Assembly (NCBI GenBank): GCA_944351415.1
Contig: CALVPQ010000004.1
Location: 86-64,085 of the forward strand
DNA length: 64,000 nucleotides
Direction: 5' to 3'
Source of the DNA: an uncultured Clostridia bacterium
Lineage (GTDB): Bacteria > Bacillota > Clostridia > Christensenellales > UBA1242
Numbering within the stretch: position 1 is the first letter of the stretch; each line of letters starts with the position of its first letter. Below are positions 5,730 through 52,500 of the stretch, in pieces. The translations under genes were made by a program, and so were the position numbers. A model generated the notes under the pieces. The model had not been told where the DNA came from. It was given only the letters and a program-made list of their open reading frames with translations, and did not search any database.

Positions 5730-6028
5730 AAAAATAAAAAAATTTATATTTTATAGATAATTTTTTAAAAAAATTATAAGCAAAATTATAAATAATAATT
5801 ATTTATTTTAATTATATAAAAAATATAAATTCTAATTATAAAATTATTTAAAAATCAATTATTTTAATAATTAAAAAATATTTTTATTAATAAAAAATCA
5901 TTAAAATAATTCATTTATAATTAATTTTTTATTATTTAATCTGACTTTAAATTAAATAAAAATAAATTTAATAATTTAAAATAAATTAAAAATAAATAAA
6001 ACTTAAATAAAATATAGGAGCAAAAAAA

Positions 6029-8644
6029 ATGGAGCATGAAAGCAGAAAGTCTTTGGAAGAAATTTTTCAAGACACAAAAGTTGAAAAAGTCGATACTGTA
6101 GACAACCTTAAAAAATCCTTTATTTCTTATGCTATGGCGGTTAATGTGTCTCGTGCTATTCCTGATGTGCGTGATGGACTTAAACCTGTGCATAGACGTA
6201 TTCTTTATGCCATGGGTGAGATGAATAACTTCTATGATAAGCCTACAAAAAAATGTGCTAGAATTGTCGGCGATGTTATGGGTAAATATCACCCACACGG
6301 TGATAGCTCAGTTTACGATGCTATGGTTCGTCTTGCACAAGATTTCTCTATAAGATACCCTCTTGTTGATGGGCAAGGTAACTTTGGCTCAGTTGATGGA
6401 GACCCACCTGCTGCTATGCGTTATACAGAAGCAAGACTTTCAAAAATTGCTGGGCTTATGCTTGAAGATATTGATAAAAATACAGTTGATTTTTATCCTA
6501 ACTTTGATAATACACTTATGCAACCTTCTGTGCTTCCATCAAAAATTCCTAATTTGCTTATAAATGGGTCTGATGGTATTGCAGTTGGTATGGCAACGAA
6601 CATTCCACCTCATAATCTTACCGAAGTTTTAAATGGTCTGCAAGCACTTATTGATAACCCTGACATTGATATTGATGAACTTATTAAAATTATCCCTGCT
6701 CCTGACTACCCTACAGGTGGAATCATTATGGGACGGGCTGCTGTTAAACATGCTTATAAAACTGGCCGTGGCGGAATTGTTGTTCGTGGCAGAGCTGAAA
6801 TTGAAGAAATGAATAATGGCAGAAGCCGAATTATTATTACAGAACTTCCATATCAGGTTAACAAAGCTCAGCTTATTATTCAGATGGCAGACTTAGTTAA
6901 AAATAAAAAACTTGATGGTATAAGTGATATTAAAGAAGAATCTGACCGCAAAGGTATGAGAATCGTTGTTGATATTAAAAAGGATTTTAATGCTCAGGTT
7001 GTGCTTAATTCTCTTTATAAACAAACTCAACTTCAAAAAAGTAGCGGTATAATCTTCCTTGCTCTTGTTAATGGCACTCCACGTATTTTAAACCTTAAAG
7101 AAATGCTTTACTACTATCTTGAACATCAAAAAGAAGTTTTAACTAGAAAAACTCAATATGAACTTGAAAAAGCAAAGGAACGTGAACACATTGTTAAAGG
7201 TCTTGTTATTGCACTTGCAAATATCGATGAAGTGATTGCAATCATTAAATCTTCTGATGATAAACAAGATGCATCTATAAAACTTACACAAAATTTTGAA
7301 CTTGACGAAATTCAGGCAAATGCTATACTTGAAATGAAACTTTCAAGACTTACCTCTCTTGAAGTTGAAAAATTAAATGAAGAGCTTCGCCAATTAGATG
7401 CACTTATTATTGACCTTGAAGATATACTTGCAACCCCTGCTCGTATTCTTAAAATTTTAAGAGATAATTTTGAAGAAATTAAAAATAAGTATGGTGACGA
7501 AAGAAAAACTGAAATCAGTCTTGATGCTGGTGGCATTGATATTGCAGACCTTATCGAAAAAGAAGATGTTGTTGTTTCTATGACTCATCAAGGCTATATC
7601 AAAAGAATGTCCACAAGCGAATATAAGTCTCAAAATCGTGGCGGTGTGGGCGTGACTGCGCATAAAACCAAAGAAGAAGATTATGTTGAAAATATGTTTA
7701 TCACAAATACTCATGATGACCTTCTTTTCTTTACAAATCTTGGACGTGTTTATTGCATTAAGGCTTATGAAGTGCCTGAAGCCCAAAAAACAGCAAAAGG
7801 TAGAGCTATAATCAACTTGCTTATGCTGAGTGAAGGTGAAAAAGTCACAACTATTATCCCTCGAAAAGATGGGGCTGAAGGCAATCTAATCATGGCGACA
7901 AAATTTGGTCTTATCAAGAAAACTAGACTTGAAGAATTTTCATCTATACGTAAGGTTGGGAAGAAAGCTATTCACCTGCTTGATAAAGACGAACTTATTG
8001 GTGTTGAAGTTTCTTCTGGACAAGATGACATCTTGATTGCTTCTCATGATGGAAAGGCTATACGTTTCAGCGAAACTGATGTGCGTAATATGGGAAGAAA
8101 TAGCCAAGGTGTGAGAAGTTTAAAACTTAGCGAAAATGACTATATTGTTGACATGGCAATTGTTAAACCTAATTCTCAAATTATAACTATTTCTGAAAAT
8201 GGTTATGGAAAACGAAGTGACGTTGAAGAATATAGGCTTCAAAGTCGTGGCGGTAAAGGTGTTAAAGCTGGTGTATTCAATCAAAAAACAGGCAAACTTG
8301 TGGCTTTAAAACAATCAATCCTTGATGATGATATTATGCTTATTGCTGATAATGGTGTGATTATAAGAACACCTGTTGAACAAATAAGTTCTCTTTCAAG
8401 AGTTAGTCAAGGCGTAAGAGTTATGAAGCTTAGAGAAGGAAGTAAAATTGTTGGCGTTGCACTTGCAAAAAAAGAGGATGAAAATAAAGACTTAGATGAA
8501 AATATTCAAAAACAAGAAATATCTGAAAGTGGAAATGTCGAAAATGAAAATAACTTGACAAATGATGAAAAAAATGATATTCTAAAGCATCAAAACAACA
8601 TTTCGCAAACTGAAGATAATTTTGATGATGAGCCTATCAAGTAA
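6029..8644 (+). CDS. gyrA: DNA gyrase subunit A
   Basis: [48 protein letters not shown], active-site [11 protein letters not shown]-terminal beta-pinwheel repeats and an acidic tail. Confidence 0.97.
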
Positions 8645-8701
8645 AATTTGAATACTACCCTATTATCTAATATGATTATTCAAGATTATAAACTGTTTGG
8701 G

Positions 8702-8796
8702 GAGCTGTGAAGCTAATTTTTAAAATAAATTTTAAAAATTATCAAAACAACTTGTTGTTTTGAAAGAAGCCGAGAGGCTTCTTAGCTTCACAGCTC
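8702..8796 (+). ncRNA. four-way-junction hairpin module (closing stem + 3 hairpins + T6); candidate structured RNA or branched terminator
   Basis: 14-bp closing stem GAGCTGTGAAGCTA/TAGCTTCACAGCTC. Inner hairpins at 8716-8739, 8742-8763 and 8764-8783 are all perfectly paired. TTTTTT follows. Confidence 0.5.
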
Positions 8797-8937
8797 TTTT
8801 TTATGGATTCAAATGACAAATCATTTTTACTATTTAAAGTTTTCATTAAAAAGCCAAACAAAAACAGTTCTTTATAGATAATTTCGTCAAAATCTACAAA
8901 TTCTAAATAAAATATTGTGAAGTAAGGGGGAAAAATT

Positions 8938-10995
8938 TTGGATATAAAAGAAAAAGAATATCTTTTAAAAACTTTAAAAGTTATTGACAAGAAAATAATT
9001 GAAAATAATGAGAAACTTAAAGCTGTTAGAACAAAACTTAAACTTGGTGTTAGCGACCTTGCAGAAAACTTCCATGATAAAGAAAGTGACCTTTCTTCTA
9101 TATATAGCAATTTGGCAGATATTGAATCACTTGAAGGAGAAATTTTTAAAGAAAGCAAAAAGTTAACACTTCAAAAACAACACCCATATTTTGCTCGTAT
9201 AGACTTTTTGCCAAATAATAGAAAAACTGTGCAAAAAGTATATATTGGCATTGGAAATCTTGTAGATGATAATAAATTATATGTTGCAGACTGGCGTGCC
9301 CCTATATCTTCTATGTATTATGATTTTAATCTTGGCCCAGCTAGTTTTAAAATTGGAAAAACTGAATATAGCGGACAGCTTCAACTTAAAAGGCAGTATA
9401 AAATAGAAGATGGACAACTTTTATCGTATTTTGACACAGATATAACGATAAATGATGAAATCTTACAGGAAATTCTTTCTCATAATGTGTCAGTAAAAAT
9501 GAAGCAAATTGTTTCTTCAATACAAAAAGAACAAAATGAAATTATGAGAAAGGATATTGGTGATAGTATGCTTGTGCAAGGTGTTGCAGGCTCTGGAAAA
9601 ACATCTATAGCCCTTCATAGAGCAGCTTATCTTCTTTATAAACATCGTGGACAAATCAAAAGTAAGGATATTTTAATTATTTCCCCTAATAACGTGTTCT
9701 CAAGTTATATATCCGAAGTTTTGCCACAACTTGGCGAAGATAATCTTGTTGAAACAACTTTTGCGCAAATTGCTAGAGCAGAACTTAAGCGCCCTATTCA
9801 ATCAAGGGAAAGTATGCTCGACGATATAGCAACAAACCCTAAACAAAGTTTGCTTGACGAAATTTCTTATAAATCTTCTTATGAATATCTTGATAGTTTG
9901 CTTAGATTTTTAAAAGGTCCTTTCCTTGAGACATTTACCCCACAAAATCTTTCTTATGTTGTTCGAGAAAATCTTGATAATAGTGTTGAAACAATAGACT
10001 TTCCTGCAGAGCAGACAAAAGAACTCTTTTTTAAAACATTTAAGGGTCTTGACCTTTATGAACGCATTAATAAAATTGCTTGGCAATATGCCATGGTTTT
10101 CACAGAAGAACGACATTACACAAAAGAGCAAAATAAAGCTCTGCGTGATAGATTTAAACGTATATTATATAAATTTTTACCTATTCGTGACGTTAATAAG
10201 ATTTTTGAAATTTTTATGGCAAGAGAAGGTTTTAAGGTAAGCAAAAAACCTAGCATAGATTATATTGATAAAGGCACATATCTTGCAATTAAATACTTCT
10301 TATATGGTTTTGACCATGACTTTTCAGCAAAATATCTTATAATTGATGAGATGCAAGACTTTACCCCTGTTGATATATATTTATTTAGAAAACTTTGGAA
10401 CTGCCCTTGCATTGTGGTTGGTGACGTTCATCAATGTATTGAAAAAAATCCAGCACCTGAATATCTGCAAATAACAGCAGACTTTTTAGGTTGCAGATTG
10501 CTTGAACTTAAGAAAACCTACCGCTCTACAAAGGAAATTGCTAAGTTTGCAAACAGTCTTATAGGACTTAATGATATTGAATTTGTTAACAGAAGCGGAA
10601 AAGAGCCTGTTTTATATAAAACAACAAATCAAGCAAATACAATTTTGAAGATTATAAACAAAGAATGTCAAGACTATGACCACATTGCTATAATATGCAA
10701 ATGCAACAAAGAAGCAATAGCCTTACACAAAGAACTTTCAAAACTTACTAATTGCACTCTTCTTAATGAACCAGAGGATTATAATAATAGAATACTTATA
10801 ACATCTTGTGCAACAGCAAAAGGTATTGAATTTGATGCTGTGATTATCCCTAATGCTGACAGTGAAAACTATAAAAATACTATAGATAAAAATATTATCT
10901 ATGTTTCTGCAACGAGAGCACTCCATAAGCTTTTCTTTGTTTGCCAAAAAGAGCAAAGCCATTTACTTAAAGATATTGACATAATAGAAGAATAA
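8938..10995 (+). CDS. helD: HelD-type (helicase IV-like) UvrD-family helicase
   Basis: QHPYFARIDF N-terminal signature, Walker A GVAGSGKTSIALHRAAYL, IIDEMQDF, C-terminal YVSATRALHKL. TTG start with AAGGGGG 8 nt upstream. Confidence 0.8.
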   Translation: MDIKEKEYLLKTLKVIDKKIIENNEKLKAVRTKLKLGVSDLAENFHDKESDLSSIYSNLADIESLEGEIFKESKKLTLQKQHPYFARIDFLPNNRKTVQKVYIGIGNLVDDNKLYVADWRAPISSMYYDFNLGPASFKIGKTEYSGQLQLKRQYKIEDGQLLSYFDTDITINDEILQEILSHNVSVKMKQIVSSIQKEQNEIMRKDIGDSMLVQGVAGSGKTSIALHRAAYLLYKHRGQIKSKDILIISPNNVFSSYISEVLPQLGEDNLVETTFAQIARAELKRPIQSRESMLDDIATNPKQSLLDEISYKSSYEYLDSLLRFLKGPFLETFTPQNLSYVVRENLDNSVETIDFPAEQTKELFFKTFKGLDLYERINKIAWQYAMVFTEERHYTKEQNKALRDRFKRILYKFLPIRDVNKIFEIFMAREGFKVSKKPSIDYIDKGTYLAIKYFLYGFDHDFSAKYLIIDEMQDFTPVDIYLFRKLWNCPCIVVGDVHQCIEKNPAPEYLQITADFLGCRLLELKKTYRSTKEIAKFANSLIGLNDIEFVNRSGKEPVLYKTTNQANTILKIINKECQDYDHIAIICKCNKEAIALHKELSKLTNCTLLNEPEDYNNRILITSCATAKGIEFDAVIIPNADSENYKNTIDKNIIYVSATRALHKLFFVCQKEQSHLLKDIDIIEE

Positions 10996-11058: not shown

Positions 11059-11398
11059 TGTGGACAAAAATGTGGATAACCTTATAACATTTGTTTATAA
11101 TTATGCAAAATACCTTTTAAATTATATATAAAATAATAACTATATCAAAGTTTCAAATTTTATTAAAAAAATCAATTTTTAAAAGTCAAGAAAATTATTG
11201 CAGTTTTTACAACAATCTTTATAAAATTATTTTGAAATAAGTCTGATTTTAGTTGAAATCACGAAAAATTGATGTGGAAATGTGGATAACTTGCCATGTA
11301 TAACCCTCAAAATCGTCAAAATCCCCAATTTTGCATAAAAATTAATGCTTATGTATAATTATTTATATGTGGAAATGTGGATAACTTTTTGTGGATAA
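11059..11398. promoter_or_regulatory. DnaA-box cluster (oriC-like or DnaA-titrating region)
   Basis: Perfect TGTGGATAA (complement of TTATCCACA) at 11071, 11281, 11376 and 11390. Near-perfect boxes at 11059 (TGTGGACAA), 11273 and 11368 (TGTGGAAAT). All are in one orientation inside a 594-bp non-coding AT-rich gap. Confidence 0.75.
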
Positions 11399-16214: not shown

Positions 16215-16309
16215 ATTTTTAACACATATATAGTTCAACACTCTTTTTAAAAAAATAAGTGCGGGAAAATAAATTTATCTATAAAGGAAGTTGGTGCGGG
16301 AAAAATAAG

Positions 16310-16402
16310 GCGATTGAAAGTGCACACAAATTTTTGTGTGCCAAAAAGCATTTGGCTTTTTGAAAAATTTTAAAGTTCCTTTAAAATTTTACTTTCAATC
16401 GC
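16310..16402 (+). ncRNA. four-way-junction hairpin module in the tmk leader; candidate structured RNA or branched terminator
   Basis: 12-bp closing stem GCGATTGAAAGT/ACTTTCAATCGC. Hairpins 16322-16341 (8 bp), 16342-16362 (8 bp) and 16364-16390 (12 bp) are all perfect. TTTTT follows. Confidence 0.5.
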
Positions 16403-16422
16403 TTTTTATAAAGGAGAAAAAT

Positions 16423-22135: not shown

Positions 22136-22210
22136 AACATTATATATTCTAAAAAATTATTTTATGTTTAAAAATTTTTAGATTTTATAAATAATAGTTG
22201 ACACAAAAAA

Positions 22211-22301
22211 GGTCTAGCAACCACACGCATGAAATGCGTGCAAAAACGCAGAATGCGTTTGGCAACTTTTGAATTTACTTCAAAAGTTGGGCTGCTAGAC
22301 C
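22211..22301 (-). ncRNA. four-way-junction hairpin module between ltaS-like gene and alr; candidate structured RNA or branched terminator
   Basis: Closing stem GGTCTAGCA/TGCTAGACC (9 bp, plus CC/GG after one A-C mismatch). Hairpins 22224-22240, 22244-22260 (both 7 bp, GAA loop) and 22263-22289 (11 bp). The T6 tract is on the - strand (22205-22210). Confidence 0.5.
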
Positions 22302-22374
22302 TGTGGAATGACTGAATTATTTATCATAATAAAATCAATTATAATCTCTTTTTATAACTTTTTTATAATCTAAG

Positions 22375-26256: not shown

Positions 26257-29200
26257 TTATTTTTCAGATTTTGAAGCTTCATAAAATTTCTTCTGAGCAT
26301 TAATTGCTTTTACTATACTGTTGATAACCTTATTTTTATTAAGCCACCAATCACGACTCCATACCCTTATAATTTTCCAACCACGAGATTCAAGAAATTT
26401 ATTGCGGTATACGTCGCGTTCCATAATTGAATCACTGCTTTTGAATGCTGCATAGTCACATTCTATACCTAAAAGGTATCTATCAATATTCTTGTCATAA
26501 ACGGCAAGTGAAAGTTTATAATCTGTGCTACCTAAGTTTGTTTCAACGCTATAACCAAGCTTTGTAAGCTCATCTTTTATATATTTCTCAAGATTATTTT
26601 CAACAATAACATCATTTGTTTCTGGCAAGGCAGGTTTAAAACTATTTAAAACATATTCTGCTTCCTTATATTTCTTGTTGGATATTGCTCTAACATATTT
26701 AAGATAACTCTTAAAAATCTTAGGTCCCGCATTCTTTGTGCCTTCAACAGCAAGTTCTTCTGGTTCTATACTTGTGACGACATATATTTTCTCTTTTGCA
26801 CGAGTGATTGCAACGTTAAGTCTATTTTCGCCACCTTCAACTGAAAGTGGACCAAAGTGAGCAACAACCTTGCCATACTCATTTCTTGCATAACCTATTG
26901 AAAAAATGATTATATCACGTTCATCACCTTGAACATTTTCAAGATTTTTAATAAATATTGATGTGTCTTCCCCATTTTCCTTTCTATTTTGCTCTCTGAT
27001 GTATGCATCGCGGAAAGCGGTGTCTTTATGACATTCTTTATCTATAGCATCTTCTATAGCATTTTCTTGCTCTGTATTAAATGTTATAATACCAATAGAA
27101 CTTTTATTTCTCTTATTTTTTATTAGTTTTTTAAGTAGTGTTACAATAGCCTGAGCCTCTTCCTCATTGTGGCGATTAATCCACTTGCCATTGACCTTTA
27201 TTCTTTCAATTGGTTTATTGCCAACATTTTTTGATATATTAGGTGCAATTTGAAGTTTACCATCATAGAAGGCATAGTTTGAGAAGTTTATAAGCTCTTC
27301 ATTTTTACTTCTATAGTGATATGTTAGGTTTGTGCTTGTATAACGAGAAGTTGCAAGGTCTAGTAAACTTTCAACTTCGAGAGCTGCCTGTGTTGCAAGG
27401 TCAATATCGTCATCACTATCATTGCCAAGGTATCTTTTCATAAAGGTTGCTGTTGGGCGGAGCTGTTTAGAGTCCCCTGCGACAACAATAAATTTTCCCC
27501 TATATATTGTTGGAAGTGTGTTTTCTATAAATACCTGACTGGCTTCATCAAATAAAATTATATCAAACATATTCCGTTTAAGAGGAAATATTGTTGAAAC
27601 ACTCTCTGGTGATAAAAGCCAACATGGGAATAATTTAAGAAGATAATCTCCATAAAGTTCCATCATCTTACGAACTGGCATAAGTGCCTGTTGTTTTGTG
27701 ATTTGATATAGATAATTTTTATTATCAGGGTCGCTATTAAAATGTTCCACATAATCACTTTTAAACTTATCAATTGCTATTTCGCTTGATATACGTTTTT
27801 CATCTGCTTTTAAAGACATAATTCTGTTACGTATATTCTCAAAATCAATAATCTTTGAAAGTTTTTCTTTGTTAAGTTCTTCATAGGTTACTGCTTCATG
27901 ATATATTCTTATCTCTAATATTCTGCCAACAATATCTTGAAATTGCCTTAAATTCTTAGAATTTGTAAAGGCAAAGTTAAGAATGGTTTTTTCATCATCT
28001 GTAAGCCCCTGAAGTGAAACATTAACATCACGAATTTCAACATAATCATCAAGAGCATTCAATAGTAACTTTAAGAAAATTGTGTTGCCGTTGACAATAT
28101 TATCAACAGTCATTAGGTATCCTTTTCTATCAAGAACTTTCTCAAGTAAAGAATAATTGCTTATATAATTTTTTATATCATTTAAAGTGCTTTCAAATTG
28201 AGATGCAATCTCTTTTTCCTTCTTGTTTAAGTTATATTTAACAAATGGATAAGCTGGGAATAGAACTTTTGACCAATTTAATGCTTTATGCAACTTTGGA
28301 TAGTCTATTTTTGAAATCATTTTTACAAGCGGTTTGGTGTTTTTGCTGTCTTCTATATCATTTTCAAGCATATATACCATAAGTTGTCTTGCATGTGGGT
28401 GTTTTGCTGTGTCAAAAGGTATAATTGTTTTTTGAATAAGTCCATTTAGATAAGTTTTCATCTGATTGATAACATGAATATCAACATCTGCCCTGATATG
28501 GTCAATAAGTGGATTTGTCTTCTTTAGTTGTATATATCTATAATAAAGTGCTGCCTTATTCTTCTCTTTTATAACTCTGATTGTTTGATAAAGATGTTTG
28601 TAGTCCATCTTCATTATTTCATGATTTTTTAGCATAAGTTTATAAAGCACATAGTCGTTGCTTGTTTTGCCAATTCTAGCAGAATTTGCATACATCTCTT
28701 GCAGTGTTAGCCCAAATGGAGTTTTTGTGAAAAGTGTGTCTGATATAACCTGCAATTCTTCCACTTCTTTTTGAATATTTTTCTCGACAATGGCATACTC
28801 ATCATTTTCTTCTCTGGCATGATATGAACCCATTAAGGCTTGATGCATTTTATTGCAACGTTCATAAAATTCCACCTTATTCTTTTCTGCATCTGTTATA
28901 AACATACATTTTGAATTTAAGGTTTTAAGACGGTTAAATACAACGTCGAGCGCAGCCTTTTTTTGAGATACAACAAGCACTCTTTTATTTTTACAAAGTG
29001 CATCAGAGATGATATTAACAATAGTTTGTGATTTACCTGTTCCTGGTGGACCATATATGACCAAATTGCCAGATTGGTTAAGTTTTGCAATCGCATTTTC
29101 TTGAGCATAGTCAAGGTCGTTTATTGTATATACCCTAGGGTCAATCTTTTTAAGTTTCTTGCTTTGCTTGCCTTGAAGAAGCTGGTCAATCGCTTCGCTT

Positions 29201-30084
29201 GTTAATCTCTTCTTCTCGAGAAGAGAGTAATCATTATATATTGCGTTTGCAAGTGGAAATCTTCCTATAACACAAGTATTAACAATTTTTAAACCATCAT
29301 CTTTAAAAGATGGTTCTTTTATGCTATCAAACCTAACAAGACCTTTATTTGCTTTTTTAAAGTCGTAATCAAACTTAAAGCCGTAAGCTGAAAGATAATC
29401 AAGAACATCTGCTATATTTTTTAATTTATAATCAACAAGGTTATCAAACTCTGTAATAAGCCCCTCATAATTAATGCGATGTTCTTTAGCATAAGCAAGT
29501 AAAAGCACCTTATTAATTTGAATAAGCTCATCATGTTTTGCCTCTATTGATACCGTTTGGTCATCTTCAATATTGATTGTGACAGGGAAAAGTATAAGTG
29601 GACCTTTGATTTGAATATCTTTGCTAAGTTGCCCTACAACAAAAGGATAGCCAATAAACATTTCATATCGGCCTGTTTCTTTTGCGAACTCTTCAATCTC
29701 TCTCTTCAAAGCCTTAAGCTGGTTTACTTGTGAAAGCAGAAGCTTTTTCATTTCTTCCTTCTTTACCCTTTCACGACGAAGGTTCTCACTTCTCTGTTCT
29801 TCAGTTGACATTCCTTTTGTGTCTACAAAAGAAGCTTTAATCTTTGTTTCAAGATTAAAATTTTTTGCAAGTCGTTGCTTTGTATCTTTTCTTATTAATG
29901 CATAGCTTGAACGTTTGCCCTTCCAAAGAAATGTAAGAAATTCATCAAGTTCGTCAGCATCATCTCCTATTACCGCACCAATATCATAGGCATATTTTTT
30001 GCTTAGATTTTTTGAATACAAACTTCGGTTTTTTCCGCTTATTTCTATAAGTCTTTCTTTATAATATGTATAAATTGATTTCAT
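26257..30084 (-). CDS. DUF4011-type SF1 (Upf1/DNA2-like) helicase fused to a C-terminal PD-(D/E)xK (DUF559/Vsr-like) nuclease domain
   Basis: GYPFVVGQL...PLILFPV (DUF4011-like), Walker A IYGPPGTGKSQT, ILFDEASQV, VVAGDSKQLRPT, YHYRS, VQGDERDIIIFS, RLNVAITRAKEKIYVV. Tail is LGIECDY...RDVYRNKFLESRGWKIIRVWSRDWW. Start set to ATG 30084 (GGAAGAG SD) to avoid overlap with rnhB. Confidence 0.8.
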   Translation of the reverse strand: MKSIYTYYKERLIEISGKNRSLYSKNLSKKYAYDIGAVIGDDADELDEFLTFLWKGKRSSYALIRKDTKQRLAKNFNLETKIKASFVDTKGMSTEEQRSENLRRERVKKEEMKKLLLSQVNQLKALKREIEEFAKETGRYEMFIGYPFVVGQLSKDIQIKGPLILFPVTINIEDDQTVSIEAKHDELIQINKVLLLAYAKEHRINYEGLITEFDNLVDYKLKNIADVLDYLSAYGFKFDYDFKKANKGLVRFDSIKEPSFKDDGLKIVNTCVIGRFPLANAIYNDYSLLEKKRLTSEAIDQLLQGKQSKKLKKIDPRVYTINDLDYAQENAIAKLNQSGNLVIYGPPGTGKSQTIVNIISDALCKNKRVLVVSQKKAALDVVFNRLKTLNSKCMFITDAEKNKVEFYERCNKMHQALMGSYHAREENDEYAIVEKNIQKEVEELQVISDTLFTKTPFGLTLQEMYANSARIGKTSNDYVLYKLMLKNHEIMKMDYKHLYQTIRVIKEKNKAALYYRYIQLKKTNPLIDHIRADVDIHVINQMKTYLNGLIQKTIIPFDTAKHPHARQLMVYMLENDIEDSKNTKPLVKMISKIDYPKLHKALNWSKVLFPAYPFVKYNLNKKEKEIASQFESTLNDIKNYISNYSLLEKVLDRKGYLMTVDNIVNGNTIFLKLLLNALDDYVEIRDVNVSLQGLTDDEKTILNFAFTNSKNLRQFQDIVGRILEIRIYHEAVTYEELNKEKLSKIIDFENIRNRIMSLKADEKRISSEIAIDKFKSDYVEHFNSDPDNKNYLYQITKQQALMPVRKMMELYGDYLLKLFPCWLLSPESVSTIFPLKRNMFDIILFDEASQVFIENTLPTIYRGKFIVVAGDSKQLRPTATFMKRYLGNDSDDDIDLATQAALEVESLLDLATSRYTSTNLTYHYRSKNEELINFSNYAFYDGKLQIAPNISKNVGNKPIERIKVNGKWINRHNEEEAQAIVTLLKKLIKNKRNKSSIGIITFNTEQENAIEDAIDKECHKDTAFRDAYIREQNRKENGEDTSIFIKNLENVQGDERDIIIFSIGYARNEYGKVVAHFGPLSVEGGENRLNVAITRAKEKIYVVTSIEPEELAVEGTKNAGPKIFKSYLKYVRAISNKKYKEAEYVLNSFKPALPETNDVIVENNLEKYIKDELTKLGYSVETNLGSTDYKLSLAVYDKNIDRYLLGIECDYAAFKSSDSIMERDVYRNKFLESRGWKIIRVWSRDWWLNKNKVINSIVKAINAQKKFYEASKSEK

Positions 30085-30184
30085 GCTTCTCTTCCTGTTT
30101 CCGTAAATTTTTATATATATATATTTTAACAAAAAAAATAAATATTTCAATATAAAAGCTAAATTTATTTTAATTATTTTTAAA

Positions 30185-30775
30185 TTATTTTTCAACAAAT
30201 TTTTTTATAAAAGTTTGTCGATGTATTTCACAGCTTCCATACTTTTTTAATGCTTCAATATGTTCCTTTGTTCCATAGCCATTATTTTTTGCAAAATTAT
30301 ATTCAGGATATATATTTGATAATTCTTTCATAAGTCTATCTCTATGCACTTTAGCGAGAATTGAAGCGGCTGCAATGTTATAACTGAGAGCATCACCATG
30401 GATTATATTTTCTTGTGGCAAATTAGTTTCTATTTTTACAGCATCAATTAAAACTATTTCAGGTGTTACAGATAAATTCTCAAGTGCTTTTTTCATTCCA
30501 AGTTTCGTGGCATTTAATATATTTATATCATCTATTATTTTTTCATCTATCTCAACTACTTTATAAGAAAGTGCAATAGAAACTATCTTTTCGTAAAGCT
30601 CTTCTCTTTTTTTCTGGCTAAGTTTTTTGCCGTCGTCTATTCCTTCTATAATTTTTTCGTCGCTTAGTGGCATTATAACACAAGCACACACAACAGGACC
30701 TGCAAGTGGTCCTCGCCCTGCTTCGTCAATTCCTGCTATAATTTTCCCCTGATATTTTCTTTCGTAGTCTAGCAT
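30185..30775 (-). CDS. rnhB: ribonuclease HII
   Basis: GIDEAGRGPLAGPVV active-site motif, 196 aa. Confidence 0.92.
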   Translation of the reverse strand: MLDYERKYQGKIIAGIDEAGRGPLAGPVVCACVIMPLSDEKIIEGIDDGKKLSQKKREELYEKIVSIALSYKVVEIDEKIIDDINILNATKLGMKKALENLSVTPEIVLIDAVKIETNLPQENIIHGDALSYNIAAASILAKVHRDRLMKELSNIYPEYNFAKNNGYGTKEHIEALKKYGSCEIHRQTFIKKFVEK

Positions 30776-31016: not shown

Positions 31017-31093
31017 GCGCCGCTAGCTCAGCTGGATAGAGCGTTCGTCTACGGAACGAAAGGTCAGGGGTTCGAATCCCTTGCGGCGCACCA
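31017..31093 (+). tRNA. tRNA-Arg (anticodon ACG) with encoded CCA
   Basis: GCGCCGC-TA-GCTC-AGCTGGATA-GAGC-G-TTCGT-CTACGGA-ACGAA-AGGTC-AGGGG-TTCGAAT-CCCTT-GCGGCGC-A-CCA, a full 77-nt cloverleaf. Confidence 0.95.
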
Positions 31094-34359: not shown

Positions 34360-34392
34360 ATAGTTTTTTATTTTTTATAACAAAAAATAAAG

Positions 34393-34493
34393 GGGCGAGT
34401 TTGCAAAAAAACTCAACAGAGTTTTTTTAGGCAAAACCTGTTTTGCCTTTAAAAGTTAAATGCTACCAGCATTTAACTTTTGCAAACTCGCCC
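34393..34493. ncRNA. four-way-junction hairpin module lying between two independent terminators; candidate structured RNA
   Basis: Closing stem GGGCGAGTTTGC/GCAAACTCGCCC (12 bp, extendable to 16). Hairpins 34405-34428 (10 bp), 34429-34448 (8 bp) and 34451-34481 (14 bp) are all perfect. A T-rich tract lies on the - strand side. Confidence 0.5.
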
Positions 34494-43594: not shown

Positions 43595-46500
43595 TTATCC
43601 ATTATAATCGGTATCCCAACTTAAGTTTAGTGTGCCAAGGGTTAGTAAACCAGATGCATCGCTATCGTTATTTATATCCCTATCTGTTCCTGAAACTTTC
43701 ATTCTGATTATAATCTTTATATATTGGTCATAAGTGAATGAATCAAAGAATGTGATTGTTCCTGCTGCGTCTACTTCCGCATTACCAGAAGCACCATCAG
43801 TTGCATCAAGTGTGAAAGTAAAGTAGTTTGTATAATTTGCTATGTCTTGAGGGTTATCTCTGTTAACATCAAGATTGCTATTTGCATATAGTAGACTGAA
43901 AGCATCACCCCAACCAAGCTTTGTAATTGTAGAAGTTCTGCTTCCTTCACCGCCATCTAAGGTTACGAATGGAATAATTTCTAAAGTTGATTCACGTTGA
44001 AGAGCATAGTATTTGCCAGTTACAAAATAGTTCTTAGATACTCTATAGTTGAATGGAGTGTCTGTGCCCTGTCCGCCAAAATCTATACTTACAATATAAT
44101 ATTTTCTTACATTATAGTATTGTCTAGCTTCCAGTAAAGATGCATTTTCAACATAAATAATATCATCTTTAATTGAAGTTATGCTTATTCTGTCTGCATC
44201 AGCAGCTGTCAGGCTTGTGCTACCAGTTTCATTATCAGTAGTTTGTGAACCATCTGTATTATCAGTTTTGTCTTCTACAAGATTTATAGCAAACGTTTCA
44301 CTATCTTCTGGTAGATATACGTTATATTGATAGTATGATGTTGAAACTATTTCTTCATTAATATCATCAGCGGTATTATAAACATAATAGAATGTTGCAT
44401 TTTGGTCACGTGGAATAATCTCTAATTCATCACCAATTTTAATATTTGTTCTTAGGTATTGAGATATAGAAATGTAAACCGTTCTTGCCCAACTATATCC
44501 TGTGTTATTAATATTTACAATAGCTGGAGTATCGTTATAACGTTCTTTCTCGCCGTCGCCATCAGTATCTCTATACAAATACAATTCAAAGTTTGTTAAA
44601 CGGCCACCGCTTACTAAAACTTCAAGCGTATCATTAATAAAACTAAATTCTATACCATCAGAATTTTCAAGGTCTTCGCCACCACTCATTATATCAAATT
44701 CATCAATTAAAGTAAAGGCTTCTCCATCACGGACAGGTGCTTGTTCTTCCTCAAGAATTGATACTTCTCTTGTGATTGTAACGTTTACCTTTAAATCGTA
44801 ATACTCAATTACACCATTGTTATTATATTCAAGTCTAACAACCATCTGAGCATCTGCGGTATTGCTTTCTTCAAATAAATCAGTGTTTTCAATACGTGGA
44901 ACTTGGAAAGGTAGATATTCCTGACCTGCTACAACATTTGGCTGTTCTGCATCGCTTCCTGGATTTCTATAAGGGTCTCTAAGTGCAGTAAGCCCATTGA
45001 AAACAGTCTCTCCGCCACCCACTTCATTTGAACTTGTTATAGTGGCAAGTGTGTAACCCGTTGTTCCACTTCTTGTTTGTATTGTTGTCTGCTGTTCTGT
45101 TGTGTCTGATTCTTCTGTTGAAAGTTGTGTTTCTGTGTCTGTATCTCCAGTTAAAACTGGTGCTTCTGTTGGTTCTATTGGACTATTAATAATTGGGTTG
45201 TCTTCCATATCATAGAACATGATTGAATCTACAGATATATAGTTTAGCATAGGCACTTCAAAATATTCTTCATCTTCTGAAAGATTTGGCCATTTTGCAA
45301 GATTTTCATCAACTTCTATTGTATAGCCACCTTCCTGTTTTGCAACTAATCCACTATCCGTGATTGATGTTGGGTCTGAACTGAATAGATAAGCCTCTAT
45401 GCCTGTGATTTCAATAAGTTCAACTGTGCCATCAACATCTTCTGGTGGATAAGTTTGTGCATTGATATAGTAGCTACTGCTATCATTATTACCGCCTTCT
45501 TCTATTTGAACACTAAGAAGTTCATATTGTGCACCAAAATCAAGATAGCCAAGTTCGGTAAGTGCAATAGTATCCGCATTTATTTCAGGAGGTGAATATG
45601 AAGACTGCAAACTGAAATATAGAATATAAGTGAAACCATAAGGGTCTACTGCTTCAATATAATAGTATTGAGTTCCAAAAATAACTTCTTTTACAGAATT
45701 AAACGTTGTATTTTGACCTTCTCTGAGTGTATAGGTTTTGCTATTTTCATCATATATCCAAACCCTATCATCAGCAGTGCCTTGTATTATTGCATTTAAG
45801 TCTTCGCCTAATTTTTGCCCTACATTTGTTTCATTATTGTATTCAACACCTTCTATTGTTGAACCTGGAACATTCATTGTGATTGTAAAGTTTGAAGTTG
45901 CAAGTTCTACCGATGTGTTTTCACCATTTGTATGTCTTACTGAAACATGACCTTCTTGACCTTCTGTAAGTGAGTCTGAATCTGTTAGTGTGAAGCTTGA
46001 ATATACATTTTGACCATCAACTGTGATAAGGCTGGCAATATTGTATACATTACCCTCGTTTGAAACTACTGCACTATTTGTATCAACTTCTACAATATTT
46101 CCGCCATAAGTTATTTGATAGTCTGGAACTATTTTTACAACAATATAAAATTCTTTTTCATAGCTTACCGAGCTATCTTTTATAGGAACAGAGTATGTGA
46201 GTCTTGTGAGAACAAAATCACCTTGATTATCTGCTCCAAGTGGCAATAACCTATAGTCATAAGCATATTGCCCTGCATTTAGAATAGCAGATGAGAAGAG
46301 ATAGACATATCTATTTGTTCCATCACTATTAGCTTCAATACTGAAGCCCTCGCTTGCAATACCATAAGTTGAAATATATCCATCAAGAATTGCAACTAGC
46401 TCGGTATCATTTTCGTCTATATCTGATACGTTATTTCTGCTTTTATAATTAACACTTTCAAATGTTAAAGTTGCTCTGTCTGCACCAAAGTCACCTTCAA

Positions 46501-49500
46501 TAATATATTCCCCTGTTGTTGGGTGGCGAACACCAAAGAGTTCAACCATGCTTTGTATTTCATAGTTTACTTCAAGTTCAATATAGTTATATAAACTTGA
46601 AATTTCTGCATCTACTGCAATATCAATACTTGGCATAAAATAATAGTTTAATGATAAATCCAAAATATTATTTGTGCTACCATCATCTTTATCAATTCCT
46701 TGTGTTCCATTGCCCTCAGTGTTATTAAATACAGGTATGAAGTTTATTGTATCTTCTATATAATTTTCAAAATCAAAGCCTGATAGTGCAATTCCATAGT
46801 AACTATAAGCAATAGGCTCACCATTTGCTCCACCATATAGAAGTTGGATTCTGTTTGTTAGAGCTATACTTGAGAATATTGATTGATTTGAATCACTATT
46901 TGCAAGTTCTCTAATATCCGCAAATGTTGCATCTTGTGTTGTTATAGTTTCCCCTGCTGTTACTTTGGAGATTATTCCATCTGTTCCAACAGTAAGCATA
47001 TTTTCTTCAAAGAGTAAAACTTCATAGGTTCCAACATAGACAAAATTGCTTCCATCTGTATTTGCCATACTGTAGCCAAGGTCTAAGTTTGCTATTTGCC
47101 CTGAATAACTTGAATCTATATATTGTGGATATGATGCATAGAATTTTATGCTTTCATCTGTGCTATAGCCACTTCTTTCAGCAAATACAACATAATACGA
47201 ACCTTGTGCTGTTACTTCATTGCTAAATATCACACTTGCCATTCTGTTTTGGCTAAATAATCCATCTGTTGAAGTTTTATCAACGTATATTGTTTCGTAA
47301 TTTACAAGTGTTTGGTTGCCACCTTCATCAGAATAAGTTCCGCTTGCAATATTGGCACTTACATAATTTATTTGGGCAACAACAGAATTTGTAAGAATAT
47401 AAACAGTATAGTCACAAGAAACTTCTTGATAAGTTATTCTGAATGTTACATAAGAATCAGTTCCATTATCATTGAATATAATTTCATTGCTACCTGATAC
47501 TGACGTAAAGGTGCCACGTCTAAATGTGATATTTTCATCAAGCCCTATCTCACTGCTTGGCAAGTAGTTCGAATAGCTAGTTACGTTATCTCCATTTATT
47601 TCGCTGTAGACACTTGCATTTGCCATTGAAAGAACTGTGATTGAAAGGTTTTCGTTATTTATTTCGGCTGGTGCGTTATTATATACAGCACTTCCTTCCA
47701 AAATCTCGCCTTGCATAATTGTGATTCTGTTAACATTGCCTTCAGAATTATTAAATGCTGGCTTATGGAATATAAAGTCTGTAAGAATATTTGTAAAGCC
47801 TGTGCCATCATCTATAAATTCTCTTGTTAATTCTTCCCCGTTAGGTGAAGGATAATTTGCTTCTAAAGAAACACTCTTATATACGTTAAATGAGAATGTG
47901 ATTGTGAATGTTTGATATACCACAGCTGATAAGTCTGAATTAGAATTATAGTTAAAGTATAATGAAACAATCATATTTACATCAACACTTGTGTCGCTTG
48001 CAATATAGTCTGTATGAATTGTTGTGCCTTCTATTGATACAAATGCTGGGCTTGAAGATGAGCCATTATATACAACGTTTGTATTGCCATAGCTATATTT
48101 AACACTAAATATACCATCTTCATCTATTATTAAATCTTCTCCTGCAAGAACAACTCCACCGTTTGCACTTGTTCTATATACAACGTTTTGCCCTAGAGTT
48201 AAGTTTGTGGTGAATGTGAAGTTTTGACCGTCATAAATACCACCTCTGAATGTGATTGTGAAACTGAGAGTTATATTATAACTTCTGATAAGGTCAGCAA
48301 CAATAAATGTTGAATTTCCATCAAATACTATAAAGTCTGTGCCATCAAAACCATTTATATCTTGGGTTGAACTTGTTATCGAATCTAGTGTTATAGTATA
48401 ATCACTTCCTGAAAGTGAGGTTTCTTCACCATTAAGTCTGATGTTGAATATATCTGTAAATTCATAAGAGTTTCCACCTGCAAGAGTATTATTATCTACC
48501 TTAACATCATAACTTGCAGTTGCATCTATATTTATTATAAGTGTTGCAAGATAACCTTGTTCTGTGTAGAGTGTGAACTCTATCTGTCTGTCGCTTGATA
48601 TATAATTTGCAAAAGTGATTGTGAATAAACCTTGATTTGCTTGAGATGAATCGTAAGTGAAAGATTCAACTGCTGATTCTACATTCAAGCCTATTTCTTG
48701 ATTTTCAGCACGTTCACCAGTCATTGAAATTTGAAGTATATCCCATACTTCTGTATAGCTTTGGGCAGAACCAGTGATATAACCTTCAAGCAATCTTATA
48801 TCCATAGATAATGTTCTATTATCTGATGATGCAATACTTTCTCTAGTAATATCCCAAGTATAAATTTCATTGTTTGAATCAGTTATAACTGTAGAGTTGC
48901 CTTCTTCAAATCTTACTGAATAATTATAGGTTGTGGTATTAAGAATAAAAGTATAGTATTGTTCGCCACCAATAACCGCTAAATCATCATCTTGAGCACC
49001 ACCTTGATAGCTGTGTTTAATGTTAATTGTGATTTGCTCACTGGTGTAGGCTGTGTAATACATCTGAGAATAGTCATCTGAGAAATAAATTCGTATATAA
49101 TTTGACCAAGTTTCTTCGCTAAAATAAGGGTTTTCACCAACAACAACACTTTCAACTTCATTAACGTAGCTTAAATCAGAGAAAACTCTTGTGCCATTGT
49201 ATATAAAGCTACCTTCACCTGTAATTATTTTGATTGTAAGAATATCGTCTGTTGCAATTTCAAAATTTTCAGTTGAATCAGGAGCTTCAGCTGCTTCCAA
49301 AGCTTCAGCAAAAACTTCTTCTAAATCAATAATTCTTTCATCTTCTGAAATGGTGACAAATTGAGCATCTGTTTTGAGTTCGCCATTGCTGTTATATAAA
49401 GCAAACCATACCTGCATTTCACTGTCTGGGATTACTTGAAGCTCTGTTATAGTGGTTTGAACTGTGTTTATTTCAGTTTCATTATACCTTATTTCTCCTG

Positions 49501-52500
49501 CACCTGAAATGCTTCTTATTGTGAATCTATCACCCCTTTCAACATCACCAAAGAGAGCTGTGAGGTCTATTGTTTTATCAAGTGTTGTGATTGTTATAAG
49601 TTGTGGCTGGCCATTAATCTCATCAGAACCATCTATTGGTGTTATTAGAACTGTCATATCACTTGTTACAGACACATCTAATGTGGTTATGATTTGTTCT
49701 TCACCACCTTCAACACCTTCGGTTCCTATTGAGTCTATTGTTATATTTCCATTTACTAAATTGCTATTGATTAAAGGTATTTGTTTTGTGATATTAAATC
49801 TCTTTTGATTTTCATTTAATGTTGTTGCACCAAATACATTATCAAGTTCCACCATATTTTCACTGTCGACATCACTTTCTAAAAATTCTGAATTTCCATT
49901 ATAGCCATAGACAGAATTATCAACAATAACGTCTGGAATGACTTTGAGAACATAATAGAATTCTCGACTGTCGCTTGAATTTGAAATTGTGTATCTTAGT
50001 GCCAAATAGAAGTTATCCATAGTGCTTGTAAGGTGATTAAGAGAAAGCTCTGCCACCCTTTCATAAACACCACTTTCAACTTGTTGTGTTTCTATAGAAA
50101 TTAATTTTTCAATTTCAGAATTTGCTTGAACCGAACCTGTTGTGTCTACAGGATAATAATCTACACTTATTGAAAAACTTGGATTTGAAAGCATATATAA
50201 GCCATTTGACAACTCTTCTCCAAAGGTATATTCACTTAAAATTTGTGTTACCTGACCTGCGGATACTGTGTCGTATATTCCATTTTCTATAAGTGTATTA
50301 GGTTCAGTCATTGCAGTTGCAAGTTTATCTGCATTATCAACTCCGCTTTCATAATTTACATAATCAAAACCAATAGATGAAATTATGATTGGCACATACA
50401 TTACTGCAATAGTTCCAGGGAACTCTGGTTTTTCACCATTGTTTTCATTATCTGAGCCAAAGTATACAACCATAAATAATTCTTCGCCATCAAGACCTTG
50501 GAATAATCTATTGCTTGAATTTCTTGTTGTAAGCCTTGTTCCTGTTAATGAAACAGCCATTCCTGTTTCATCTTCAACAATATGCCCTGTTGAATCGTAG
50601 GTTACACCTAAATAATTAGTGGTTGATTCTGCATTGCCTGATGTTGAGTATGTTCTTAAGTTGCCATAAATATTAAATCCATTATTTTCAGTTGTTCTTA
50701 CAAAATCATCATTTAAGAACCATGTTCCTTCTTGAAGCATGATATATTCAGTTGAACCTATATTTTGAACTTCTGCCTTTATATTATAGTCAGAATCATA
50801 AGATATAAGTGATGCTATATATTCATAAAGGTCAAAATTATCGCCTTCACTATTTGTATATAATCTTATTTTGATTTCAATAGAGCCAAGTTCCACTCTG
50901 TTTATTATAGTGTTATTAGCCCCACGAACTAAATAATTAATATATAGTGTTGTGGTAAGTTCAGTTGTGTTATAGTCGAATACAAAGAAAGCATCTTCAC
51001 TCTTTGTTATGTTTCCGTTTTCATAAACTAAATAATCTGAGAATACATATTCCACATCAATTCCGGTAATAGCCGTATCGACTTCGCTTCCACCAGCTGT
51101 TGACATTCTACGCAGGCTTACAAAATCAGATTCAACATAGTTTGTTCCACTATTTATTATATAGTAAACATTTTGTTGGTCGTATATAGCAAGGTCTCGC
51201 GTTACAACAAAACTTATTGTTATGCTTAATGTGAAGTTATTATCACCATCTGGAGCAAAGATTACTGAGTATGTTTGAGATGGCTCATTCCAAAAATCTT
51301 CAAATATTATCGTTCCAGCTGAAATTGTTTCATCTCCCATTGCGTAGTCTTTTACATAGAAAATTCCTACATAAGATGTTGCACTTTCTTCTAGAATATA
51401 ATTATTTCCACTTCTTACAATATAATAGAGTGATTCGCCATCATCATAGAGTGAAGCCAAAGAATTATCATAAGCTTGTGACAAGCTGTTTAGATAATTA
51501 TTTGTTACAGTATTTTCAAGTTCTAGTGAAGCACTTGCATATAAGGTTTCACCATTATTTGGATAATTTTGTGATGAAACTGATACGTTTGGCAAAAGGG
51601 TTAAGCTTAATGTTGAACTAATTGCCCCATTTTCGCCAGTATCTGAAATGGTAAATCTTATTATATGGTCTACTGAAAAATCTTTATTAATTAAAATACT
51701 TGTGATTGATTGACCACTTAAGGCTGCTCTTATTGATGCTGCAGTGCCATCTAGCCCTGATATTATACCCGTCTCACTATAAAGTGTAAGCATTCCATCA
51801 TATCCAAAAAGGTCTTCAATCATCTCATCGGTTATAGTGCTATCATTTAGATATTGTTGGCTGAATTGGAAACGAATATTGTTATATTGTGTTCTATTTT
51901 CATCTTCGCCAATATAAAATCTTGCAAGTGTGTGAAGATTGATAACATCTATAGCACCATCTGATTTTGCACCATACTTACTTACTGCAATATTTGAAAT
52001 ATCTGGTTCTTCTGTATAGTTATCGTTTGTAAATGGGTCAAGTGAATCTGTGCTTTCAGCATAAGTGATACCAACAGAAGAAATATTTAAGGTCATAAGT
52101 TGCCCATGAGTTAAACTTGTTGCATTGCCATCTATACTTTCAAGTGCAAGAGAAACAACAGCACCTTGGGCTTGTCTAAATGTGAAAGTCTGTCCGTTTA
52201 AGTTGATTGCATCGGTTGAACCACTTTCAATTATAAATCTCCACTCTCCAGCAAGAGTATCTGTTCTTTGTTTTTGGTCTGTTATAGTTACATAACTGTT
52301 ATCAACACCAAGAAGCCTAGTTAAAAGTTCGGATACACTTGTAAGTTGAGTTATTTCAAGACTGATAGTTGTTGTGAAATTACCGCTTGCATTTAAAATT
52401 TGATTTACATAGATGGTGTCTTGCCCTGTTATAAAATTGTTATAATCATAAGCACCTTCTGGGGCAATTTCAATATTTGTTGCCACTGGGCTATAAATAC

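Follow-up and report, generated by a model that had tools for sequence, protein, structure and literature searches.

Four sites in a 64,000-nucleotide stretch of DNA from an uncultured Clostridia bacterium (the window) carry perfect four-helix junctions, and comparison with related genomes shows that these elements are kept at orthologous loci in many species through compensatory changes. With moderate and evenly balanced confidence, we read the window copies as branched intrinsic terminators, or 3'-end caps, that would work as sense-strand RNA, the first of them also serving as an attenuator of helD; the class as a whole probably spread in the manner of REP/MITE-like repeats.

Anatomy and context of the four window copies

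Member 1 (8702 to 8796) consists of a closing helix of 13 to 14 bp that encloses three perfect hairpins separated by linkers of 0 to 2 nt, with a run of six T's after it (Table 1). A single nucleotide, T8783, is common to hairpin 3 and the closing stem. The arms and coordinates of member 1 proposed in a first-pass annotation of this DNA are all present and correct to the base, and at the three further sites for which it claimed a like architecture the sequences agree with that claim.

Folding against dinucleotide-shuffled controls under RNA and ssDNA parameters, a check that the annotation had proposed, confirmed the junction at all four sites. With RNAfold, the four-way junction is both the minimum free energy (MFE) structure and the centroid at every site and on both strands, with energies of -42 to -57 kcal/mol (z = -7.5 to -10.6), and 0 of 200 dinucleotide shuffles match the stability of the four sites. 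The ssDNA parameters return the same four-way-junction folds (z about -10 to -11). The helices are perfect, as had been stated, but the accompanying statement that the family is free of wobble pairs has to be amended: the sense (minus) strand of site 3 has two G-U pairs.

Such structures stand out in this sequence, whose G+C content is about 31%. Two detectors, one combining a perfect closing stem with RNAfold and the other based on RNALfold, return the same four outliers in the 64 kb, plus a tRNA. Where closing-stem words occur by chance in unrelated genomes (about 107 occurrences), they enclose three hairpins in no case. A terminator scan bears out the view that the ordinary terminators of the window are single hairpins, and these simple terminators are likewise perfect palindromes.

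All four copies lie 58 to 168 nt from the preceding stop codon and have at least six T's within the 9 nt after the closing helix; the T-tract is on the strand of the upstream gene at 4 of 4 sites, as the annotation had it. Member 2 lies between a 2,4-diaminopentanoate-dehydrogenase-like gene, whose stop is 96 nt away, and the tmk start codon, 15 nt away; member 3, upstream of alr, is separated by 73 nt from the stop of the preceding LtaS-like sulfatase-family gene; and member 4 sits between convergent genes, 168 nt past the stop of a gene encoding a metallo-beta-lactamase (MBL)-fold protein. Inside member 2, a match to TTGAAA-16-TAAAAT (16360 to 16387) is a possible tmk promoter, a candidate limited by the fact that promoter-like matches reach only about 1.5 times the chance level in this AT-rich DNA.

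Table 1. Positions of the four junction elements, of the parts of member 1, and of the surrounding helD features in the window
Feature	Position	Strand	Evidence or remarks
helD promoter-like site TTGACA-17-TATTCT, TG-extended, within the gyrA 3' end	8555..8583	+	Aligns with TTGACT-17-TATAAT of L038 and L057
helD leader, conserved start ATCAAAACAACATTT, a repeat of the hairpin 2 5' arm	8590..8604	+	Alignment A2
Member 1 closing helix, 5' arm GAGCTGTGAAGCTA	8702..8715	+	Sequence, fold
Member 1 hairpin 1, 11 bp, all A/T	8716..8739	+	Sequence kept across species
Member 1 hairpin 2, TCAAAACAAC/GTTGTTTTGA	8742..8763	+	Mostly conserved; compensatory changes
Member 1 hairpin 3, AAGAAGCC-GAGA-GGCTTCTT, GNRA loop	8764..8783	+	Always pairs; sequence swapped in most lineages
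Member 1 closing helix, 3' arm TAGCTTCACAGCTC	8783..8796	+	Sequence, fold
T6 tract immediately 3' of the member 1 closing helix	8797..8802	+	Sequence
helD, TTG start, ribosome-binding site AAGGGGGAAA at 8924-8934	8938..10995	+	NCBIfam HelD_BACSU
Member 2 with T5	16310..16407	+	Element 16310-16402; orthologue L201 19685-19773
Member 3 with T-tract	22204..22302	-	Element 22210-22302; orthologues L201 12018-12107, L202 12052-12146
Member 4 with T-tract CTTTATTTTTT	34379..34493	-	Element 34393-34493; homologous to K and J of L038 and to ERZ1090861 copies

Authenticity of the sequence

The window copies have no mismatches and look designed, and the annotation had left room for an assembly artefact, a synthetic insertion, or a very recent origin. 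The window's gyrA protein is unchanged on contigs of three independent metagenome assemblies, the DNA of which is 99.95 to 99.99% identical to the window. L078, L079, and L080 contain site 1 with its flanks exactly; site 2 and its flanks are exact in L078 and L079, the two that reach it; and the intergenic region of site 3 is identical in L302 and L303, the latter being a Logan assembly of a separate run. The elements are also identical among five same-species assemblies. The same sequence is therefore present in at least four independent assemblies, made from different samples with different assemblers, which excludes an artefact or synthetic insertion; more than 15 species hold diverged orthologues. 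A very recent origin is excluded as well. We regard the probability that the elements are an assembly artefact or synthetic insertion as negligible.

Conservation and covariation

In orthologues of site 1, the closing-stem core CTGTGAAG/CTTCACAG is invariant across 12 species (alignment A1); it differs, with compensation, in L002 and L004. Hairpin 1 (ATTTTTAA...) is nearly invariant and hairpin 2 (ATCAAAAC...) is mostly conserved, while hairpin 3 is of unrelated sequence in most lineages with its pairing always kept. Because the hairpins shift register, MAFFT with RNAalifold recovered only the closing helix from the orthologues, and this procedure was replaced by a covariance-model-guided alignment with a per-helix parse. 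In the model-guided alignment of ten site-1 orthologues, 22 of 37 pairs have changed on both sides, as against only 5 to 9 two-sided pairs in slid controls, in which the partner is moved by 1 to 3 columns; this alignment is fitted to the structure and leans toward it, and each sequence also folds perfectly alone. None of 500 shuffles attains any of five covariation measures. The two nearest genomes contain orthologues of sites 2 and 3, in which the differences are compensated.

The structure-selected family that the annotation proposed is real, as seen both in the compensatory changes in 22 of 37 pairs and in the topology at orthologous loci. Its description of the members as unrelated in sequence holds roughly, and within the window only, where the four copies are mutually dissimilar. 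Under a covariance model of the site-1 orthologues, site 2 reaches 51.9 bits and site 3 reaches 36.6 bits, and site 4 has clear homologues in K and J, two elements that L038 carries at another locus (z of 10 to 13). No motif common to all members was found. Of 81 loops, 75 are of the minimal 3 to 4 nt.

These patterns bear on the possibility that the elements are a neutral by-product of mutation, in which template switching during replication makes or re-perfects palindromes inside terminator loops and the inner hairpins have no function. Such a process would suit the perfectly Watson-Crick arms with their minimum loops, the new palindromes nested in hairpin loops in L010, the wholesale replacement of hairpin 3, and the fact that the simple terminators of the window are perfect palindromes too. 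It is at odds with the hairpin count, which is exactly three in all of more than 40 elements, and with their near-zero linkers, with the persistence of the architecture at orthologous sites, and with the retention of the sequences of hairpins 1 and 2 over species whose gyrA is only about 77 to 93% identical, and we consider it very unlikely.

Distribution in the clade

The closest gyrA relatives of the window are metagenome-assembled genomes (MAGs) of uncultured gut Clostridia, up to 93% identical, and at least 15 related species have the same architecture in the interval that separates gyrA from the following gene. The annotation had named, as grounds for giving up the family, a lack of further copies together with a lack of conservation at orthologous loci; further copies exist, and the topology is kept at orthologous loci. 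Element density in the clade is roughly 1 per 12 kb, as estimated from the window, L201, L202, and L204, and the L010 genome has three more copies in 22 kb. The strong matches (more than 40) always contain exactly three hairpins and in no case two or four, from detectors that accepted two or more.

Outside the clade, the detector found no AT-rich perfect junctions in 0.86 Mb of unrelated prokaryotes and 1.09 Mb of other gut Firmicutes (e.g., Lachnospiraceae and Oscillospiraceae). All perfect junctions within the scanned sets came from members of the clade, including the L010 genome, and the sole other three-branch matches in the outside sets were GC-rich repeats of Xanthomonadales. A search of genome contigs with the closing-stem pattern GCTGTGAAG-N55-85-CTTCACAGC returned mostly chance matches, which were reused as a negative control, along with two new orthologues, L083 and L180. 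An exact 42-mer of member 1 had no match among 185k species genomes, because the representative genomes belong to different species, and the pattern of the site-4 family had no match in viral contigs. For site 4 itself, an exact-protein look-up of the adjacent MBL-fold protein gave no record, and no orthologue of the site was recovered among rubrerythrin neighbors; L204 has two junction elements, of unrelated sequence, after its MBL-fold orthologue.

The working molecule

A closing helix is meaningful only in a single strand, be it RNA or ssDNA, and both strands fold in both chemistries. Two biases separate the strands. Among 21 elements oriented by gene or by T-tract, in which 840 pairs are Watson-Crick, there are 13 G-U pairs on the sense strand and 2 on the antisense strand (binomial P of about 0.007, with events that are not fully independent), and GNRA tetraloops occur 5 times on the sense strand and not at all on the antisense strand. 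These biases favor sense-strand RNA, which we infer to be the working molecule. At the same time, G-U pairs make up only 1.5% of pairs, which is very low for an evolved RNA. The low incidence of G-U pairs and the equal folding of both strands also fit a DNA-level constraint or arm-to-arm correction, and correction at the DNA level, for example, by template switching between the arms, may contribute to the perfection of the pairing.

Evidence for and against termination

The elements occur in two contexts. Class 1 takes in the four copies of the window and their orthologues, together with the elements E, G, and n9 of related genomes, all of which lie 8 to 168 nt after a stop codon; the 9 nt that follow their closing helix contain at least 5 to 7 T's, on the preceding gene's strand. 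Every orthologue of sites 2 and 3 has a T-tract, and the arrangement of T-tract and upstream gene recurs at E, G, and n9, which are independent sites. We estimate the chance that four random intergenic sites would all show the class 1 layout at about 1e-4. Class 2, in which the T-tract is missing, is made up of the J, K, and M multicopy types, L035, L040, and the orthologue in L057; its members sit in long intergenic regions or leaders, some of them between divergent genes.

G+C content within the element peaks in the closing helix, where G/C pairs form a clamp beside the T-tract, and all four window copies have a GC-rich stem followed by a U-rich tract (at least 5 U's in about 8 nt). They differ from intrinsic terminators, which have a short loop (about 3 to 10 nt), in that the "loop" is a three-hairpin junction of 65 to 75 nt, and a consensus terminator scan does not report the closing helices. 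To our knowledge, a branched "loop" of 70 nt has never been shown to support intrinsic termination. Also against a role in termination, about half of the independent loci in related genomes are without a T-tract, and the copies between divergent genes have nothing there to terminate. The evidence favors a terminator or RNA role for the window copies.

If the window copies are terminators, the three inner hairpins would fold during transcription and so bring the halves of the closing helix together, and this helix with its U-tract would then act like the stem of an intrinsic terminator, giving the terminated RNA a 3' end that is very stable and resists exonucleases. In origin, the elements were probably palindromic repeats that spread in the REP/MITE manner, with copies at gene ends then being kept as terminators.

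Member 1 in the helD leader

The first-pass annotation placed member 1 after gyrA. That placement is correct but incomplete, as the element also sits in the 5' leader of helD, downstream of the helD promoter; the C-terminal tail of the window's gyrA reads through this promoter, and the element therefore follows gyrA as well. Member 1 is about 110 nt downstream of the promoter and 135 nt ahead of the helD start. The gene product matches NCBIfam HelD_BACSU with 445 bits (cut-off, 419); HelD is an RNA polymerase-recycling motor that rescues stalled RNA polymerase. The promoter and the start of the leader are conserved in the window, L038, and L057, and L038, the closest relative, is without member 1. 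Of 15 site-1 orthologues, 9 have a T-tract; the one in L057 does not. The T-tract runs right up to the helD ribosome-binding site in L006, L007, L008, and L046, and L008 has kept the closing helix and T-tract with decayed interior hairpins.

Member 1 would halt read-through from gyrA and, because it lies between the helD promoter and ribosome-binding site, would also attenuate transcription of helD, freeing a leader RNA of about 210 nt. An efficient terminator at this position would silence helD, such that termination would have to be partial or conditional. An 11-mer of the leader, ATCAAAACAAC, equals the 5' arm of hairpin 2 and was considered as an antiterminator, but this candidate was rejected in that the repeat is not conserved in L007 and L046; the repeat is possibly a trace of origin only. 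Features of a riboswitch were not found: the junction has at most 2 unpaired nucleotides, the loops are variable and of 3 to 4 nt, and the ensemble holds no competing structure.

Inverted interiors and multicopy subfamilies

In L002 and L004, the three hairpins are in reversed order relative to helD and the T-tract, and among J-type copies that share asymmetric flanks, the interior is found in either orientation. Both orientations are thus encountered between species and between paralogous copies, with no difference among the five identical same-species assemblies. The window proteins include no invertase, which an invertible promoter switch (inverton) would have nearby. The tolerance of inversion argues against functions that depend on hairpin order.

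Inversion also weighs against the view that the elements are RNAs bound by protein or processed by RNase, in which coaxially stacked perfect helices of about 22 to 24 bp would be a substrate for RNase III or a junction-binding protein and, within leaders and trailers, would set mRNA half-life, or would free a stable small RNA. This view gains from the presence of elements in 5' leaders (that of helD, upstream of gyrA in L040, and, for the M type, about 50 nt past a strong promoter) as well as at 3' ends, from the conservation of the closing-stem core and hairpins 1 and 2 of the helD element beyond the needs of pairing, and from the constant three hairpins with 0- to 2-nt linkers that yield a perfect four-helix junction. 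Yet conserved unpaired nucleotides of the kind that specific recognition would use are almost absent, the members have no motif in common, and no candidate partner protein emerged. We consider this explanation unlikely.

In metagenome sample ERZ1090861, contigs of similar coverage carry J-type copies with "GCGAATG" closing stems, at least 8 in number. Related M-type copies are also on contigs of similar coverage, and copies are often paired, 200 to 430 nt apart. Part of the multiplicity of the J and M types comes from paralogous genes with shared upstream regions. Viewed as terminal inverted repeats, the arms of the closing helix are 12 to 32 bp long. Visual inspection of flanks showed no evident target-site duplications, no clean example of an empty site came to light, and the roughly 40 window proteins contain no transposase, recombinase, or HUH/Y1 family in Pfam.

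Such copies raise the alternative that the elements are selfish or mobile DNA, a MITE- or REPIN-like repeat whose folded ssDNA is recognized by a structure-specific transposase or recombinase and whose terminator activity is incidental. It would explain why sequence-related copies occur at nonorthologous loci (site 4 versus K and J of L038), the J-type copies of ERZ1090861, the tandem pairs, and the inversion of the interior between same-flank copies and between species; variation in presence and absence among close relatives, as with member 1 in L038, the equally good fold of ssDNA, and the near absence of G-U pairs point the same way. On the other side, besides the lack of matches to the enzyme families and of evident target-site duplications, the four window copies are single-locus elements with long vertical inheritance and a conserved closing-stem sequence, paralogous genes with shared upstream regions explain some of the multicopy cases, and the G-U and GNRA biases favor one strand. 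On balance, we find mobile DNA a doubtful explanation, one that partly overlaps the terminator reading as an account of origin.

Comparison with known systems

A search of Rfam, one of the checks that the annotation had suggested, was run and assigned the elements to no family. Apart from tRNA, there was no match at the gathering score over the whole window or at an E value of ≤1 over bases 1 to 40000, nor, among related loci, at the gathering score in 11 loci or at an E value of ≤1 in L298 (1800 to 2700); all Rfam searches returned only tRNAs and one chance HrrF match. Identity with tRNA or another cloverleaf was rejected: ARAGORN and Rfam find only a tRNA-Arg (31017 to 31093), and the elements have arms of 8 to 14 bp and loops of 3 to 4 nt, unlike the 7-bp acceptor stem and D, anticodon, and T arms of a tRNA. 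Our literature search on four-way-junction, branched, or cloverleaf terminators, on MITEs with such a fold, on template-switch palindromes, and on helD leaders found nothing matching.

With intrinsic (Rho-independent) terminators, bidirectional perfect-palindrome terminators included, the elements share a GC-rich helix, a U-tract immediately behind it, and a place soon after the stop codon of the upstream gene and on that gene's strand, and the position of member 1 in the helD leader is the layout of an attenuator. They differ in that a three-hairpin junction of 65 to 75 nt takes the place of the 3- to 10-nt loop, which is why standard terminator finders miss them, and in that about half of the related elements have no U-tract.

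The REP, BIME, and REPIN sequences of enterobacteria and pseudomonads, which act as mRNA stabilizers or terminators, are similarly intergenic palindromic repeats, common at gene 3' ends, sometimes tandem or inverted and specific to a clade. REPs, however, are single imperfect hairpins of 20 to 40 nt with a GTAG/CGTC head and a RAYT transposase gene, whereas the elements are four-way junctions of 90 to 130 nt with no genome-wide consensus, and the window has no RAYT (Y1/HUH) gene. MITEs such as Correia/CREE, RUP, BOX, and ERIC, which can carry or abut promoters and terminators, resemble the elements in having terminal inverted repeats, a length of about 100 to 150 bp, an intergenic location, and multicopy subfamilies in related genomes. 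In contrast to MITEs, the elements have no parent insertion sequence (IS) among the roughly 40 proteins of the window, each window copy has a sequence of its own, and the structure is kept by compensation rather than decaying; nor do we know of a MITE described as folding into a three-hairpin junction.

Integron attC sites are comparable in that they work as a single strand in folded form and conserve their structure with sequence left largely free. They are, however, single bulged hairpins with R and L boxes and extrahelical bases, associated with cassettes and an IntI gene, whereas the elements have perfect helices without bulges and housekeeping genes as neighbors.

Overall, the elements resemble intrinsic terminators, REP/BIME repeats, and structured MITEs, and the defining feature of each (the short loop, the REP head and RAYT, and the parent IS, respectively) is missing. 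In the literature searched, the four-armed junction shape is undescribed for terminators or for bacterial repeat elements. The nearest report is that of palindromic candidate structured RNAs from human microbiomes, which are 80 to 132 nt long, can fold on either strand, and for the most part have predicted terminators within them (Fremin & Bhatt 2021, PMC8040213); the named examples there are mostly from Bacteroidetes, and the text includes no four-way-junction class or Clostridia clade.

Significance

We tentatively raise the possibility that the elements form an undescribed class defined by a perfect four-helix junction and not by sequence, in which compensation or conversion from arm to arm operates across the clade, the interior flips by way of the closing inverted repeat, and copies spread to new loci. 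Were this so, the elements would be either the first natural branched intrinsic terminators and attenuators or a mobile element recognized by its structure, with a junction-specific enzyme.

If the closing helix terminates transcription, then intrinsic termination tolerates a large, folded, branched "loop" of a kind that terminator predictors exclude, and terminators would be underannotated in AT-rich uncultured bacteria. The elements offer a clean natural example of conservation confined to structure, in which hairpins are replaced and the interior is inverted with the junction being kept, and they are useful for studying whether perfect palindromes are maintained by selection or by template-switch correction. 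They might also find use as compact, very stable RNA end caps in synthetic biology and as lineage markers for this gut clade. For the bacterium itself, the location of member 1 in the leader of helD suggests a testable feedback between structures that are hard to transcribe and the supply of HelD.

Surroundings of the junctions in the window

Directly upstream of gyrA lies a spacer of approximately 260 bp that consists almost entirely of A+T and is rich in repeats and palindromes. At the other end of the gene, the promoter and leader of helD are read through by the C-terminal tail of gyrA. Unlike the window, both the closest relative (L038) and a further contig (L057) have a gyrA with a terminator of its own, and in each, gyrA and helD are separated by an additional 189-amino-acid (aa) gene encoded on the opposite strand.

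The four-way junction preceding tmk (member 2) has two copies of the direct repeat GTGCGGGAAAA(T)AA immediately upstream. Within this junction is a promoter-like TTGAAA-16-TAAAAT directed toward tmk, the TAAAAT of which belongs to hairpin 3, in its conserved 3' arm; the match could be a promoter borne by the element or could have arisen by chance.

Other features of the window and its species

Four perfect DnaA boxes (TTATCCACA), along with one further box containing a single mismatch, cluster in the helD-hisS intergenic region, all on the minus strand. Throughout the window, there are 43 matches with one or no mismatch, versus 22 expected. This cluster is a candidate oriC-like region or, alternatively, a candidate DnaA-regulated region.

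A 3,744-aa open reading frame (ORF) had no Pfam match at an E value of ≤1e-5. DUF4011 occurs together with helicase (AAA_11/AAA_12) and nuclease (MTES_1575) domains in a 1,313-aa protein that may have a role in defence or repair. In an independent assembly of the window's species (L078), the stretch just upstream of the window contains genes with a rolling-circle replication initiator domain (REP_ORF2-G2P) and a Kiwa defence domain (KwaA).

Junctions and repeats in other genomes

A strong promoter, TTGAYR...GCGGGGGGGG-TATAMT, whose spacer contains a G-run, recurs in related genomes, and at some loci only, an M-type four-way junction is situated about 50 nt downstream. The genes that follow there are paralogous, beginning "MSLKVKLISCISLF...". 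A dispersed repeat of some 330 to 400 bp has the J-type junction as its core and conserved flanks, with the 19-mer CCGTCGAACATTTGGTTCG recurring at module boundaries. The pattern scan also returned GC-rich, three-branch structured repeats from Xanthomonadales/Lysobacterales genomes, with GCTGTGAAG...CTTCACAGC as an inner hairpin; these constitute an unrelated family.

Locations of features in the window and in other genomes
Source	Position (strand)	Feature
Window	5741-6001	A+T spacer
Window	8555-8644	gyrA C-terminal tail across helD promoter and leader
Window	11059-11398 (-)	DnaA-box cluster
Window	16259-16305	Direct repeat
Window	16360-16387	Promoter-like match
Window	26257-30198 (-)	1,313-aa protein
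Window	43595-54829 (-)	3,744-aa ORF
L078	1186-2154 and 4952-5509	REP_ORF2-G2P and KwaA genes
L284	5182-5975	G-run promoter
L288	7144-8156	G-run promoter
L192	1-165	G-run promoter
L038	7400-7470	G-run promoter
L038	7532-7918	J-type repeat
L290, L291, L292, L298		J-type repeat
L086	5922-6015	GC-rich repeat
L183	5647-5735	GC-rich repeat
L081, L104, L135, L136		GC-rich repeat
L010	6636-6781	Site-1 orthologue

In L010, the counterpart of the gyrA-helD junction (site-1 orthologue) is enlarged to 146 nt, the extra length being palindromic sequence nested within the hairpin 2 and hairpin 3 loops; it is an example of growth via loop insertion.
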